DNA of 30,616 nt from a virus. Taxonomy: Duplodnaviria; Heunggongvirae; Uroviricota; Caudoviricetes. Each line of letters begins with the position of its first letter. Positions within the stretch are counted from its first letter, which is position 1. A model generated the notes under the pieces. It did no database searches and was not told the DNA's origin. It saw only the letters and a list, made by a program, of their open reading frames with translations. The stretch is from IMG/VR virus record IMGVR_UViG_2671180357_000001, positions 1 to 30,616 of that record. One strand, given 5' to 3'. This document shows positions 25,265-30,457 of the stretch, one piece after another. The position numbers and the translations under genes were made by a program.

Positions 25265-25293
25265 ATAATACGATATGTACTTTTGGAATGCAA
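25265..25293 (-). promoter_or_regulatory. pR candidate promoter (TTGCAT-N17-TATTAT) driving cro
   Basis: Minus-strand -35/-10 hexamers with 17-nt spacer; the spacer closely resembles the pL spacer. Confidence 0.5.
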
Positions 25294-25340
25294 ACAAAAA
25301 ATACATCTTGTGCATGGATGGTTTTAGTACAGAGCGTAAT
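25267..25340. promoter_or_regulatory. oR: three candidate 15-bp repressor operator sites (about 25267-25281, 25300-25314, 25326-25340)
   Basis: 6-3-6 sites of the form A(A/G)TACA-N3-(C/T)GT..., e.g. AATACGATATGTACT; the same motif recurs three times at oL. Confidence 0.5.
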
Positions 25341-25355
25341 AATAAGGATATGAAG

Positions 25356-26009
25356 ATGAAATGGTATGAACTGGCTAGATCCAGAATGAAAGAACTCGGC
25401 ATAACTCAAGAGAAGTTAGCTGAAGAGCTTGGTATGACGCAGGGTGGAATTGGTCACTGGTTGCGCGGATCTCGTCATCCATCTCTTGACGAGATTGGTG
25501 TGGTGTTTAAATACCTTGGTATTGATAACGTCTCATTCAACCACGACGGTACATTTTCACCTGTTGGCGAATACTCATCTGCCCCCGTTAAAAAACAATA
25601 TGAGTACCCTGTTTTTTCTCATGTTCAGGCCGGGATGTTCTCGCCTGAGCTTAGAACCTTTACCAAAGGTGATGCGGAGAGATGGGTCAGCACAACCAAA
25701 AAAGCCAGTGATTGTGCGTTTTGGCTTGAAGTTGAAGGTAATTCCATGACCGCACCAACAGGATCCAAGCCAAGCTTTCCTGACGGGATGTTAATTCTCG
25801 TTGACCCTGAGCAGGCTGTTGAGCCAGGTGATTTCTGCATAGCCAGACTTGGTGGTGACGAGTTTACCTTCAAGAAACTGATCAGGGATAGCGGTCAGGT
25901 GTTCCTACAACCACTAAACCCGCAATATCCAATGATCCCATGCAATGATAGCTGTTCCGTAGTAGGGAAAGTTATCGCCAGCCAGTGGCCTGAAGAGACA
26001 TTTAGTTAA
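25356..26009 (+). CDS. cI: CI-type prophage repressor (S24 LexA-like autopeptidase); C-terminal domain lambda cI-like, N-terminal HTH domain distinct
   Basis: ORF 25275..26009 trimmed to Met28; residues from [21 protein letters not shown] to the end are near-identical to recalled lambda cI, including the Ala-Gly cleavage site; N-terminal HTH differs. Confidence 0.85.
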
Positions 26010-26088: not shown

Positions 26089-26161
26089 AATACAAAGTGT
26101 TATAAAAAACTAACCACATTTAGAACATTTTGTATTGACTCAATAAAGTACACATCGTACT
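26089..26161. promoter_or_regulatory. oL: three candidate 15-bp operator sites (about 26089-26103, 26122-26136, 26147-26161)
   Basis: AATACAAAGTGTTAT, AGAACATTTTGTATT and AGTACACATCGTACT; the last overlaps the pL spacer and -10 and matches an oR site at 13 of 15 positions. Confidence 0.5.
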
Positions 26162-26163
26162 AT
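26135..26163 (+). promoter_or_regulatory. pL candidate promoter (TTGACT-N17-TACTAT)
   Basis: Good -35/-10 hexamers with 17-bp spacer, upstream of nutL and N. Confidence 0.55.
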
Positions 26164-26209: not shown

Positions 26210-26243
26210 GCTCTTTAACTTCGATGGGGCGCTGACAAAGCGC
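26210..26243 (+). promoter_or_regulatory. nutL: boxA (GCTCTTTAA) and boxB hairpin (GCGC-TGACAAA-GCGC)
   Basis: boxB matches the recalled P22 nutL boxB; boxA-like element 10 nt upstream; lies between pL and the N start. Confidence 0.65.
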
Positions 26244-26362: not shown

Positions 26363-26671
26363 ATGACGGTAATCGTGTACGGGAAATCAACATTTGCAGG
26401 AAATGCCAAAACTCGCCGTCATGAGCGGCGCAGAAAGCTGGCTATCGAGCGTGATGCTATATGCAACATCATCGATTCGATCTTCGGCACAGACAGTGAG
26501 GAACCTGTTCAGGAAGCCCCGAGAAAACGTTTAATCCTTTCTGAAAAAGCAATATCACTCGGCAACATTCGTAACCAAAATACCGACGAATGCAGTGGAA
26601 GTATTTGCCTGCCAAACGTAGCTCTTTACGCGGCAGGCTACCGGAAATCAAAACAACTGACGGCGAGGTAA
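26363..26671 (+). CDS. N: Antitermination protein N, P22 gp24-type
   Basis: ORF 26279..26671 trimmed to Met29 (MTVIVYGKSTFAGNAKTRRHERRRKLAIERD...), an arginine-rich motif matching recalled P22 gp24; GAGGAAAA RBS. Confidence 0.75.
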   Translation: MTVIVYGKSTFAGNAKTRRHERRRKLAIERDAICNIIDSIFGTDSEEPVQEAPRKRLILSEKAISLGNIRNQNTDECSGSICLPNVALYAAGYRKSKQLTAR

Positions 26672-26674
26672 GTG

Positions 26675-26899
26675 ATGAATCAGACATACATTCCATCATG
26701 CTTGAGAAATCTGCCAAAGCAGAAAGCAAAGCCCAGCAAGCAAGCCATAAAGGACGCTAAGGCAGAGGTTATTGATCAAGCAATACAATTGCTCAGGGAG
26801 GAGTTAAGAAGTGGCAAGCTCGAAGGAATGATGATGCCCTATCAGCGCGGATATCTATCGGCGATTAGTAAGTTGGAAGTATTGAAGAGTGAATTATGA
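26675..26899 (+). CDS. Hypothetical protein (74 aa), first gene downstream of N
   Basis: ORF track 26672..26899 begins at GTG; ATG at 26675 with GAGG upstream; Lys-rich, predicted helical; no family recognised. Confidence 0.5.
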   Translation: MNQTYIPSCLRNLPKQKAKPSKQAIKDAKAEVIDQAIQLLREELRSGKLEGMMMPYQRGYLSAISKLEVLKSEL

Positions 26900-26961
26900 A
26901 CTATCTGGAATTTCCGGATGGTTCATTATTTTGGCAGCAAACCACTTATTTGAGGTGAGAT

Positions 26962-27048
26962 ATGGAAGAAGAATTTGAAGAGTTCGAAGAGCATCCGCAG
27001 GATGTGATGGAACAATACCAGGACTATCCTTATGACTACGACTATTGA
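26962..27048 (+). CDS. Candidate acidic/aromatic micro-protein (28 aa)
   Basis: MEEEFEEFEEHPQDVMEQYQDYPYDYDY; GAGGTGA immediately upstream; 3' end overlaps the ral start by 17 nt; may be a coupling leader. Confidence 0.3.
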   Translation: MEEEFEEFEEHPQDVMEQYQDYPYDYDY

Positions 27049-27232
27049 TAAAAATCAATGGTGTGGACAATTCAAGCGATGCAATGGATGCAAGCTGCAA
27101 TCGGAATGCATGGTTAAGCCTGAAGAAATGTTTCCTGTAATGGAGGATGGGAAATATGTCGATAAATGGGCAATACGAACGACGGCAATGATTGCCAGAG
27201 AACTTGGTAAACAGAACAACAAGGCTGCCTAA
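27032..27232 (+). CDS. ral: Ral-like restriction alleviation protein
   Basis: 66 aa, MTTTIDKNQWCGQFKRCNGCKLQSECMV... matches recalled lambda Ral; position downstream of N. Confidence 0.7.
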   Translation: MTTTIDKNQWCGQFKRCNGCKLQSECMVKPEEMFPVMEDGKYVDKWAIRTTAMIARELGKQNNKAA

Positions 27233-27368
27233 TGGTGGCCTTTATTTTTGGCATAAACAACAGAATAAACACTGCACTGTGTATTCATTCCAACGAGTGA
27301 ATACACGGAGCAATGTCGCTCGTAACTAAACAGGAGCCGACTTGTTCTGATTATTGGAAATCTTCTTT

Positions 27369-27407: not shown

Positions 27408-28376
27408 ATGAGTGAAGTAACAGATTTAGTTGTTATTGAAAAAGCAAATGCAATGACTGTATTTCAGTCTGCCGACCAGATTGAAGAAATCCTTCAAAGG
27501 GTTGAACGTGAAGTTATGTCCTTTGTGCCTGATATCACAACGGCAAAGGGCAGAAAGGAGATCGCTTCTCTGGCGTATAAAGTTGCGCAGACGAAAACAT
27601 ATCTCGATGGTCTTGGCAAAGACCTTGTTGCTGAACTGAAGGAAATTCCAAAGCTAATTGATGCCAACCGCAAGACAGTGCGCGATCGCCTTGATGAACT
27701 GAAAGCCAAGGCACGCCAGCCTCTTACTGATTATGAAGAGGAACAGGCGCGGATTAAAGCCGAAGAAGAAGCTAAGGCAGCAGCTGAAGCTCTCGCAAAG
27801 CAAATTGAGTCTGACCATGAAATAGCGATTTTGATGGATCGCGAATTTGACCGCCAAAGAGAAGAGGCAAGACTCAAAGCGGAGCAGGAAAAGCGAGAGC
27901 ATGAAGAACGCTTAAAAAGAGAAGCTGAAGAGAAAGCCAGAGCAGAAGCCGAAGCAAAGGCAAAAGCCGAAATTGAAGCAGCAGCAAGGCGAGAAGCAGA
28001 AGCTAAGGCCGCAGCGGAACGTGCAGAGCGTGAACGCATTGAAGCCGAGCAACGAGCACAGCGCGAAGCAAAAGAGGCAGCAGAACGAGCTGAAAGAGAA
28101 AAGCAGGCGGCAATTGAAGCAGAACGCCGAAAAGCACAGGAGGAGGCGGAACGAATCCGGCGCGAGGCTGAAGCAAAAGAGCAAGCCAGAATAGCAGAAG
28201 AAAAAAGAATCAAGGACGAAGAAGAGCGCAGAGCAAAGGATAAAGCTCACCGGAAAGAAGTAAATAACAAAATACTTGCTGACCTTATCAAGGTTGGCGC
28301 ATCAGAAGATGTTGCTAAAAATATCATAACAGCCATCGCAAAAGGCGAAGTATTCGCAACAAAAATAACCTACTAA
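27408..28376 (+). CDS. Hypothetical coiled-coil protein with long Glu/Ala/Lys/Arg-rich central repeat region (322 aa)
   Basis: ORF 27354..28376 trimmed to Met19 (GGAGGA RBS); about 110-aa N-terminal region, about 170 aa of EAKAEAEARRE-type low complexity, short C-terminal region. Confidence 0.6.
   Translation: MSEVTDLVVIEKANAMTVFQSADQIEEILQRVEREVMSFVPDITTAKGRKEIASLAYKVAQTKTYLDGLGKDLVAELKEIPKLIDANRKTVRDRLDELKAKARQPLTDYEEEQARIKAEEEAKAAAEALAKQIESDHEIAILMDREFDRQREEARLKAEQEKREHEERLKREAEEKARAEAEAKAKAEIEAAARREAEAKAAAERAERERIEAEQRAQREAKEAAERAEREKQAAIEAERRKAQEEAERIRREAEAKEQARIAEEKRIKDEEERRAKDKAHRKEVNNKILADLIKVGASEDVAKNIITAIAKGEVFATKITY
27760..28280. repeat. Low-complexity GAA/GCA/AAA/CGN-rich coding repeat encoding the EAKR tract
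   Basis: Imperfect short repeats visible in the nucleotide sequence; they generate spurious antisense ORFs 27731..28213 and 27912..28250. Confidence 0.6.
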
Positions 28377-28400: not shown

Positions 28401-28532
28401 ATGATTTACGCAATCGCGGGAGGCGCTCGCATGGGTGCCTTCCAACTAAATGAATCTTTACTTGAACGAATCACCCGTAAATTACGTGACGGATGGAAAA
28501 GAGCTGAGGTCTTATTATGCGCAATGAAATAG
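28401..28532 (+). CDS. cIII: CIII-like protein (FtsH-inhibitor family)
   Basis: 43-aa ORF absent from the track: MIYAIAGGARMGAFQLNESLLERITRKLRDGWKR..., central helix matches recalled lambda CIII; AAGGAA RBS. Confidence 0.7.
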   Translation: MIYAIAGGARMGAFQLNESLLERITRKLRDGWKRAEVLLCAMK

Positions 28533-28669
28533 CCATCAATCACCAGATGCTTCGTGCTGCACAGAACAAAGCAGTAATAGCCAGATTTATTGGTGATTCA
28601 AAAATGTGGCTTGAAGCAAATAAAGCGATGAAATCAGCTATCAACATTCCGTGGTATCGCAGGAAATGA
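28517..28669 (+). CDS. kil: Kil-like protein (candidate host cell-division inhibitor)
   Basis: 50-aa ORF overlapping the cIII end: MRNEIAINHQMLRAAQNKAVIARFIGDSKMW... resembles recalled lambda Kil. Confidence 0.6.
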   Translation: MRNEIAINHQMLRAAQNKAVIARFIGDSKMWLEANKAMKSAINIPWYRRK

Positions 28670-28923: not shown

Positions 28924-29631
28924 ATGGATTTGAACAAATTCGATGAGCCATTCAGCCCTGAAGATATCGAATGGCGAATACAGCAAAGCGGTAAAACACG
29001 CGATGGCAAGGTGTGGGCTATGGTGCTGGCTTATGTCACGAACAGGGCAATCATGAAACGCCTGGACGATGTTTGCGGCAAAGCAGGATGGCGCAATGAA
29101 TACCGCGATATTCCCAACAACGGAGGCGTTGAATGCGGCATATCAATCAGGATTGATTCCGAATGGGTAACCAAATGGGATGCTGCTGAAAACACGCAGG
29201 TAGAAGCCGTAAAAGGTGGTCGTTCCGGTGCAATGAAGCGCGCTGCCGTTCAGTGGGGAATCGGTCGGTATCTGTATAACCTTGAGGAAGGTTTCGCACA
29301 AACATCTCTCGACAAAAAGCAGGGATGGCACAGGGCAAAACTCAAGGATGGAACAGGATTTTACTGGCTCCCTCCATCGCTGCCGGGCTGGGCAATCCCA
29401 GCATCAGATAACAAACCATCACCAGAAAATACCAACCAGAAATCTCCATCGGTTGACTGCGAACAAATCCTGAAAGACTTCAGCGATTATGCGTCAACAG
29501 AAACTGATAAGAAAAAACTCATCGAGCGTTATCAGCGTGACTGGCAATTAATGGCTGGCAACGAGGAGGCGCAGGCTAAATGCGTTCAGGTAATGAACAT
29601 CAGAGTTAACGAACTAAAACAGGCGGCATAA
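28924..29631 (+). CDS. Single-strand annealing recombinase, Rad52/Sak-type core with Erf-like C-terminal tail
   Basis: Rad52-family signature (KRAAVQWGIGRYLYNLEE); C-terminal about 60 aa (TETDKKKLIERYQRDWQL...KCVQVMNIRVNELKQAA) resembles the recalled P22 Erf C-terminus. Confidence 0.8.
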   Translation: MDLNKFDEPFSPEDIEWRIQQSGKTRDGKVWAMVLAYVTNRAIMKRLDDVCGKAGWRNEYRDIPNNGGVECGISIRIDSEWVTKWDAAENTQVEAVKGGRSGAMKRAAVQWGIGRYLYNLEEGFAQTSLDKKQGWHRAKLKDGTGFYWLPPSLPGWAIPASDNKPSPENTNQKSPSVDCEQILKDFSDYASTETDKKKLIERYQRDWQLMAGNEEAQAKCVQVMNIRVNELKQAA

Positions 29632-30147
29632 ATGGCAAGCAGAGGCGTAAATAAGGTGATCATTATTGGTCGCCTTGGGCATGATCCAGAAATCAGATAT
29701 TCACCATCAGGAACGGCATTTGCAAACCTTACAGTTGCTACGTCAGAGCAATGGCGTGATAAGCAAACTGGAGAGCAAAAGGAGCAGACGGAGTGGCACC
29801 GCGTGGTAATGAGCGGGAAACTGGCAGAAATTGCCAGCGAATATCTGCGAAAAGGCTCTGAGGTTTATCTTGAAGGCAAATTGCGGACAAGAAAATGGCA
29901 GGATCAAAGCGGACAGGATCGGTTCACTACCGAAGTTATCGTAGGAGTTGGTGGAACCATGCAAATGCTTGGTGGCAAGCAAGGAGGCAATGAACAGTCT
30001 TCACCTCAGCGAAATAACGGTAAGCAACAAAAACAGCAATCTCAGCAGCAGGGGAATCACAGCGAACCACCTATGGATTTTGACGACGATATACCCTTTG
30101 CACCAGTAACTCTCCCCTTCCCTCGTCACGCTATTCACGCAATTTAA
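29632..30147 (+). CDS. ssb: Single-stranded DNA-binding protein
   Basis: OB-fold N-terminus ([23 protein letters not shown]...), Gly/Gln-rich linker and acidic C-terminal tail DFDDDIPF; start overlaps the recombinase stop. Confidence 0.9.
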
Positions 30148-30160
30148 TCAGGAGAAAATC

Positions 30161-30457
30161 ATGCCAGCGCCTCTGTATGGTGCGGATGACGCGCGCCGCT
30201 GTTCCGGCAATTCCGTATCGGAGGTGCTGGATAAATTCAGGAAAAACTACGACCGGATAATGTCTCTACCGCAGGAAACGAAAGAGGAAAAGGAATTTCG
30301 CCATTGTATATGGCTTGCAGAGAAAGAAGAACGCGAGCGAATTTACCAGACATCAATCCGACCATTCCGCAAAGCCACATATACCCACTTCCCTGAATAT
30401 ATCGACCCGCGCCTGCGTAATTACCGCTCACGCTATGGCGCTATCAGTAATGACTGA
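30161..30457 (+). CDS. Hypothetical protein (98 aa)
   Basis: ORF with GGAGAAAA RBS directly after ssb; no family recognised. Confidence 0.5.

Follow-up and report, generated by a model that had tools for sequence, protein, structure and literature searches.

The first gene behind the antiterminator gene N in a lambdoid virus encodes a small basic protein that is tentatively read here as a non-enzymatic early accessory factor, a stoichiometric binder of a polyanionic target, most probably nucleic acid. The gene (26675–26899) belongs to the IMG/VR record IMGVR_UViG_2671180357_000001 (Caudoviricetes), whose positions 1–30,616 are hereafter called the window. The window belongs to a lambdoid phage or prophage whose early genes are P22-like, and its leftward early operon lies on the + strand. 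The protein would be a binder rather than an enzyme because it has 74 amino acids (aa), two predicted helices and no match to a catalytic family. Nucleic acid, or machinery acting on it, is ranked first as target because a polycationic arm on a helical scaffold is the one feature conserved throughout the family; inhibition of a host protein is a close second. The function itself cannot be assigned from sequence or predicted fold.

The open reading frame (ORF) runs from an ATG at 26675 to a TGA at 26897–26899 and spans 225 nucleotides (nt), which confirms the coordinates and the 74-aa length given in a first reading made without database searches (the sequence-only reading). An alternative in-frame GTG at 26672 would yield 75 aa; relatives in RefSeq and GenBank are annotated from the ATG. 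The stop codon TAA of N (26669–26671) is 3 nt before the ATG, and the Shine–Dalgarno sequence GAGG (26665–26668, + strand), 6 nt upstream of the ATG, lies within the 3′ end of N. This junction, GAGGTAAGTGATG, is retained in most of ∼80 related loci in viral contigs, with CAGG or TAGG for GAGG, or GTG for ATG, in a few of them. Chance alone could yield an ORF of 74 codons, and a conserved but functionless or spurious ORF, kept by lying in a recombination linker between N and a variable slot, would fit the conserved linker DNA on its flanks and the lack of a known function. Against this stand the substitution patterns and the reach of the family. Variable sites among 36 distinct 225-nt alleles fall mainly at third codon positions (30, against 20 at first and 6 at second positions), and the pooled ratio of nonsynonymous to synonymous polymorphism (pN/pS) is 0.19. 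Comparison with the Enterobacter allele gives a synonymous divergence (dS) of 0.66 and a nonsynonymous divergence (dN) of 0.078 (dN/dS 0.12), a sign of strong purifying selection. Moreover, identity is retained at the protein level, down to 31–40%, in unrelated genomes, contexts and hosts. The spurious-ORF reading is thus largely refuted and, judged by these alignments, the ORF is a real gene under purifying selection.

AlphaFold2, run with two alignments, produced the same model of the protein (mean predicted local distance difference test (pLDDT) 85 and 87), in keeping with the earlier prediction of a helical product. Residues 1–20 form a non-helical arm with a one-turn helix at 8–11, followed by helix 1 (21–45/46), a loop and helix 2 (54–73), in a protein of 8.4 kDa. 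The description as lysine-rich is true only in a moderate sense: there are 9 K in 74 residues (12%) and 4 R (K + R = 13, D + E = 8, isoelectric point 9.6), and the charge is concentrated in residues 1–30, which carry +6 in the window protein, versus −1 for residues 31–74. The same polarity holds over 27 family members, down to 31% identity, with a net charge of +5 to +9 in the N-terminal part (mean +6.9) and a mean of −0.1 in the hairpin. The arm has the consensus Y-I-P-x-C-L-R-x-L-P-K-x-K-x-K-P-R-K. Most members share the N-terminal motif Y-[IM]-P-x-C-L-R-x-[LI]-P-K, with a near-invariant Cys, and the motif R-G-[YH]-[YL]-S-A-I-[ST]-x-L-E at the start of helix 2. Full invariance is limited to R45 and A63, with I37 and I64 close to it; further positions in the two helices are hydrophobic in every member, and in the model these positions would lie in the helix–helix interface. 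The most distant members have lost the YIPxCLR motif, and the basic stretch and the hairpin are the sole features that they keep. At codon 21 (26735–26737) the window copy has Ser21 where the relatives have a near-invariant Arg in their conserved K-P-R-K stretch.

The gene occupies the position claimed for it, the first after N in the pL operon. N (26363–26671, + strand; 102 aa, P22 gene-24 type) is assigned by Pfam N_peptide (7.3e-40) and PHROG 271 (3.6e-39) and carries an arginine-rich motif of P22 type, GNAKTRRHERRRKLAIER. Upstream, a consensus scan found a pL-like sigma-70 promoter, TTGACT-17-TACTAT (26135–26163, + strand), the sole promoter-like site on that strand from the repressor gene to the 74-aa ORF. 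A nutL boxB-like hairpin read from the sequence, GCGCTGACAAAGCGC (26229–26243, + strand), is presumably identical to P22 boxB. Scans for promoter consensus and terminators detected neither a promoter-like nor a terminator-like site between pL and the gene; the ORF is transcribed from the pL-like promoter together with N. The two genes may be translationally coupled, and the protein would be made in the first minutes of infection, like N, with no requirement for antitermination. The first terminator-like structure of the operon is a hairpin (26896–26934, + strand) that begins in the target stop codon. Its stem (26896–26926) has 14 base pairs with an A/U-rich base and is followed by UAUUUUGG in the window and by UGUUUUGG in relatives; the predicted RNA fold has a free energy of −24.1 kcal/mol (z = −3.7). 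If this hairpin stops unmodified polymerase, N and the target would form an immediate-early unit, and ral and the genes beyond it would need N. In phages Sasha and swi2, a hairpin and T-run directly follow the homologue, which thus ends a transcription unit there. Once made, the basic arm would bind phage or host DNA or RNA, or a complex that handles nucleic acids, and the hairpin of helices would serve as scaffold and possibly as oligomerisation module. The benefit to the phage would be of host-takeover or counter-defence type, not a core regulatory step.

Several observations weigh against this scheme. The U-run behind the stem is short and interrupted, and other copies of the palindrome that forms the stem have no U-run, so that the stem is a candidate terminator only and the immediate-early status of the gene is putative. 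The deeper alignment gives the arm a pLDDT of 81–85, and instead of reaching out freely to nucleic acid the arm may be packed against the helical hairpin; the conserved YIPxCLR resembles a peptide for docking on proteins more than a contact with nucleic acid. Foldseek searches with two AlphaFold models against PDB and BFVD returned generic helical hairpins only (E > 0.7), so the fold yields no functional lead, and no paper in the library searched was found with peptide strings of the family, its accession numbers or its PHROG number.

A protein–protein inhibitor is a possible reading, in which the YIPxCLRxLPK peptide docks on a host protein that the hairpin then blocks or sequesters. The protein would in that case be a new anti-defence or host-takeover factor, directed at a defence system or at some housekeeping enzyme, for instance a polymerase, a protease or a nuclease. 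The sharp conservation of the short N-terminal motif with its Cys and the pLDDT of the arm speak for such docking. So do the early accessory position beside ral, with abc2, kil and cIII further down the operon, and the spread of the family over temperate and virulent phages in small early gene cassettes. However, several distant members dispense with YIPxCLR yet keep the basic stretch, the gene is rare on plasmids, and PADLOC-DB 2.0 gave no defence-protein match, the sole hit being a 14-residue match to PDC-S05 (E 0.015, 13 bits). Many known DNA-mimicking inhibitors are acidic, whereas the target protein is basic. An anti-defence scan of podoviruses phi296 and phi367, which carry a copy 98.6% identical to the target, was made with DefenseFinder and reported only a methyltransferase, Ral and Gam (PMC12502783). 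The nucleic-acid binder keeps first rank on the feature that outlasts the docking motif, namely the basic stretch on its hairpin.

Searches for characterised relatives returned none. The target matches zero Pfam families at E up to 1, and with 27 family members searched at E up to 10 no family was common to more than two of the 27; one distant member has a sub-threshold match to Pfam HLH (E 0.045). The best NCBIfam match reaches 14 bits against a cut-off of 87. PDB sequences gave only chance matches with the target protein (E ≥ 0.2), and nothing but four chance matches with the family profile at E up to 10. The Pfam models Kil, CIII and Ral do not match the target; each matches a separate ORF of the window. 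OrbA, a BREX inhibitor considered as a lead, is a protein of vibriophage ICP1. The lack of a homologue noted in the sequence-only reading stands for characterised proteins, to none of which clear homology emerged in the libraries or in the sequence, profile and structure searches used. It fails for homologues as such, which exist and are all unannotated.

The family is catalogued as PHROG 5305 (‘unknown function’), matched by the target at 2e-37 (128 bits, residues 1–74 versus profile positions 1–71 of 71) and by 27 of 27 diverse relatives; it is wholly uncharacterised and all its members are unannotated. RefSeq entry WP_053292540.1, a ‘hypothetical protein’, is identical to the target and belongs to a 316-member cluster at 90% identity. 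The family is small: it forms 40 clusters at 90% identity, and a search of 1.84 billion proteins gave 23 representatives at the 50% level. It is restricted to phages and prophages, including lambdoid prophages of E. coli, Enterobacter, Citrobacter and Erwinia. Lambdoid carriers of E. coli are mEpX2, mEp506, mEp213, ECP1, JEP4, APC_JM3.2, a Stx2c phage and the podoviruses phi296 and phi367, and more distant lambdoid relatives are found in Erwinia phage Midgardsormr38 (54% identity) and HK225 (47%). Beyond lambdoids, the gene occurs in the virulent T1-like phage Henu8 (Drexlerviridae) and, at 36–47% identity, in Sasha, Sergei, Solent, Bas82, swi2, SeSz-2, D10 and Bas81, which we take as virulent from gene context. 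Further homologues occur in Pseudomonas PS-1 and Vibrio pYD38-B. Only five plasmid records carry the gene, and the idea of a plasmid leading-region gene was dropped for that reason. A profile scan of genome contigs with a narrow alignment found only four loci, and a 74-aa ORF after N in locus L099, considered as a second homologue, proved unrelated.

Within E. coli the gene is scarce. Its 3′ end with the hairpin is present in 145 of 5426 complete genomes, and the exact arrangement of the window, with the end of N, the ORF and ral, in 59 of them. Most phage records with the flanking N and ral DNA are without the target gene. Given this rarity, the frequent absence between N and ral, the place at the edge of a variable slot and the occurrence in N-less and virulent contexts, the gene is a genuine accessory, dispensable early gene.

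The gene comes after N in all E. coli lambdoids, with an unchanged gap, but the N-termini of N itself are of at least four types (P22/HK620-like, phage-21-like and two other arginine-rich-motif types). Similarity to other phages starts ∼28 codons ahead of the N stop codon (from ∼26588); the C-terminal end of N and the target gene thus move as one mosaic block. This mosaic N agrees with the modular N C-termini noted for phages L and P22 (PMC8022706). In mEp213 (L100), two different N genes are annotated in one early-left operon (740–1072 and 2225–2497), and the second is the one that precedes the target homologue. Association with N is not obligatory. In Enterobacter prophages, one other gene sits just upstream of the homologue in the place of N (an ORF of 56, 114 or 62 aa, or a gene with an Nmad5 domain). 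HK225 has no annotated N; there the homologue comes first among the annotated genes behind an annotated upstream promoter. In Sasha, swi2, Henu8 and pYD38-B, the homologue lies within small cassettes of genes without known function, adjoined by terminase genes in Sasha and swi2. An upstream partner gene, shared by Sasha, swi2 and Henu8, encodes 51–62 aa, has start and stop codons overlapping with the homologue and belongs to PHROG 8009 (L005 2310–2498, L086 2856–3011 and L088 2813–2998). This conserved partner was abandoned as a functional clue, since PHROG 8009 is also of unknown function; other neighbours are uninformative.

Downstream of the gene comes a conserved linker of ∼60 nt (26927–26965 onward). 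From +66 nt, more than 12 alternative unrelated genes follow, all behind the same GAGGTGAnnATG. The slot is occupied by an acidic 28-aa ORF plus ral, or by genes of 156, 107, 83, 149, 80, 98, 60, 55, 104 or 147 aa, among others. The target gene is the last constant element ahead of this hypervariable accessory slot, and linker and slot look like a recombination ‘boundary sequence’ or cassette site. A mini-ORF of 20 codons, MNYLEFPDGSLFWQQTTYLR* (26896–26958, + strand), overlaps the target stop codon as ATGA, and its own stop sits in the Shine–Dalgarno sequence of the next gene. Loss of the TGA in a few loci fuses it to the downstream gene. It is probably a linker by-product or a coupling device; the notion that it (MNYLEFPDGS...) is the N-terminus of an ancestral larger gene was discarded, the long versions being read-through fusions to whatever gene follows. 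The first occupant of the slot in the window is the highly acidic 28-aa ORF MEEEFEEFEEHPQDVMEQYQDYPYDYDY (26962–27048, + strand; PHROG 16060, 7e-19), which runs into the start of ral. Most often it accompanies ral, sometimes it is found without it, and it may act as a leader or as a small mimic peptide of acidic character.

The hairpin at the stop codon is a copy of a widespread 27-nt palindrome with the consensus (C/G)AACT-N-TCCGGAA-T-TTCCGGA-N'-AGTT(G/C), in which N and N' covary as A–T, G–C and T·G. Outside these 27 nt, information content drops to zero at once, and the GC content of flanking DNA ranges from 22 to 76%. The window copy has two U·G pairs, which work as pairs in the mRNA strand alone. 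When IMG/VR was scanned for exact matches to the pattern TCYGGAATTTCCGGATRGTT, at least 120 stretches were found, with a chance expectation for a 20-mer estimated at <1, and matches occur in 134 phage records. Copies lie, for example, at L221 2504–2528, L222 1201–1229, L223 1201–1227 and L220 1501–1527. The hosts include Proteobacteria, Mycobacterium, Gordonia and Synechococcus, and the sites cover both intergenic and coding DNA. The palindrome is present in Providencia, Morganella, Vibrio and Erwinia phages; in P1, P7, D6 and SJ46 it stands just before the pmgU start codon, inside the annotated pmgT, and other copies are in lambdoid genes annotated DUF551 or Eaa. In ∼25 contigs it is located between Q or methylase genes and lysis genes, flanked by two other hairpins. 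Within protein-coding genes it is read as NFPEFPESS in Mycobacterium phage MalagasyRose and, on the other strand, as ELSGNSGQL in Synechococcus phage Yong-M3-232. Its strand relative to nearby ORFs is 46 versus 23, a crude count over contexts that are not independent, from which nothing was concluded. Rfam gave no match at E up to 1 for the window region and five other element-bearing loci, nor was a transfer RNA found there, and a literature search for the palindrome string found no paper in the library searched. The element may stabilise RNA or direct its processing, act as a terminator, serve recombination or a mobile element as a site, or be a nine-codon palindrome insertable in frame.

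Gene and palindrome stand side by side in lineages from E. coli, Enterobacter, Citrobacter and Erwinia phage, as well as in a single IMG/VR locus of greater divergence. All close loci keep the hairpin, and so do the relatives from Enterobacter, Citrobacter and Erwinia phage, in which conservation of the palindrome exceeds that of the coding sequence. Such linkage would fit a regulator internal to the phage that acts on its own pL transcript or DNA, either by binding the stop-codon palindrome or hairpin and so tuning termination, mRNA stability or slot expression, or by modulating N. The constant co-transfer with the last ∼28 codons of N in E. coli lambdoids points the same way, and a palindromic site would be a fitting target for a basic arm borne by a helical scaffold that may be dimeric. 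Nevertheless, among the palindrome matches listed, 20–21 have the target family, always directly upstream, and ∼100 of 120 are without it, as judged in ∼1 Mb of DNA; for this reason a dedicated palindrome binder was dropped. Conversely, the homologues of HK225, Sasha, swi2, Henu8, PS-1 and pYD38-B have no palindrome, homologues exist in phages without N, and Enterobacter has other genes between N and the homologue. A regulatory role within the phage is therefore rather improbable. A joint reading of gene and palindrome is a little less so, and still unlikely. In it, the palindrome would be an undescribed pan-phage structured element that marks unit boundaries, carried across phages of Proteobacteria, Actinobacteria and Cyanobacteria. 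The target would be the founder of an uncharacterised class of immediate-early proteins, common to virulent siphoviruses of enterobacteria and to temperate lambdoids. Synthesised together with N, ahead of antitermination, these proteins would neutralise, through the basic arm on its helical hairpin, a host function directed at nucleic acids, e.g. a defence system.

The sequence-only reading had offered two functions for this position, host takeover and exclusion. Host takeover is possible and is compatible with both leading readings. Exclusion, meaning a factor in competition between phages like SieB or like Rip1, a prophage pore-former that senses small terminase rings, is improbable to a slightly greater degree than the regulator. 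In λ, sieB lies in this general region and has a promoter of its own. For the target, the consensus scan found no separate promoter-like site from pL up to the start codon, a suggestive outcome; a repressed prophage should not express such an ORF, and for this reason, together with the relatives in virulent phages, exclusion is not favoured. The comparison with Rip1, likewise a small phage or prophage protein, draws on the homologues of Sasha and swi2 beside terminase genes, the type of place where Rip1 was described (PMC13434031), and on the presence of Rip1 of HK446 (9oox_A) in the Foldseek list. That structural match is noise (probability 0.12, template modelling (TM) score 0.42, root-mean-square deviation 11.4) and did not recur between chains or models. 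There is no sequence match between the two proteins, the family profile found only its four chance PDB matches, and HK446 has no homologue in the tblastn list. By inspection, the target is hydrophilic and basic without a long hydrophobic segment, and it is encoded in a repressed early operon. A comparison through the HK446 genome led nowhere, there being no gene between its terminase genes.

A cyclic-oligonucleotide sponge related to T4 Vs.4/Acb2 has a still smaller chance of being right. Vs.4 with cyclic GMP-AMP (7uq2_A) was among the top Foldseek matches of the first model (probability 0.80, TM score 0.57), and both are small helical early phage proteins. However, the match is weak (E = 2, 12% identity), the two-helix core alone aligns, and the alignments are poor both for chain B of that entry and for the second model (probability 0.10–0.11). 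The 27 members give no Pfam family match at E up to 10 that would support it. ColE1 Rop and basic helix-loop-helix proteins resemble the target in having a basic segment leading into helix 1, a loop and helix 2, a likeness that is an analogy rather than a result; neither a significant sequence match nor a Foldseek match accompanies it. Ral, SieB, Kil, CIII and Abc2 share with the target the operon, the size class, early expression, optional occurrence and a mosaic region. They differ from it in lacking any sequence similarity, and Ral, CIII, Kil and Abc2 are encoded by separate genes of the window.

A LexA-family cI-type repressor ORF (25275–26009), followed by a terminator-like hairpin, precedes pL. 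Behind the slot, ral (restriction alleviation, 66 aa; 27032–27232, + strand) is assigned by Pfam Ral (1.6e-48) and PHROG 1055, and the terminator scan places a hairpin with T-run downstream of it (27221–27250, + strand). No Pfam match at E up to 0.01 was obtained for an Ala/Glu/Lys-rich ORF of 322 aa (27408–28376); the annotation is coiled-coil protein for its E. coli counterpart and ‘TolA-like’ for relatives. In an Enterobacter prophage (L094), a 324-aa protein with a Pfam Gad1 match occupies the same place. Further on are cIII (28401–28532) and kil (28517–28669), both identified by Pfam, a Rad52-family recombinase (28924–29631), ssb (29632–30147) and abc2, of the P22 anti-RecBCD type (30161–30457).

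Taken alone, the target is unexceptional among the very many early phage genes called hypothetical. The 27-nt palindrome may matter more, as it is unmatched by any terminator, RNA family or repeat class tested. Early genes near N, such as ral, kil and abc2, are the lambdoid tools against host nucleases, restriction and cell division, and the family to which the target belongs extends to virulent Salmonella and E. coli siphoviruses of phage collections (BASEL Bas81 and Bas82). A member of this gene set that is both strongly conserved and uncharacterised may reasonably be considered for a new role in host interaction or counter-defence.

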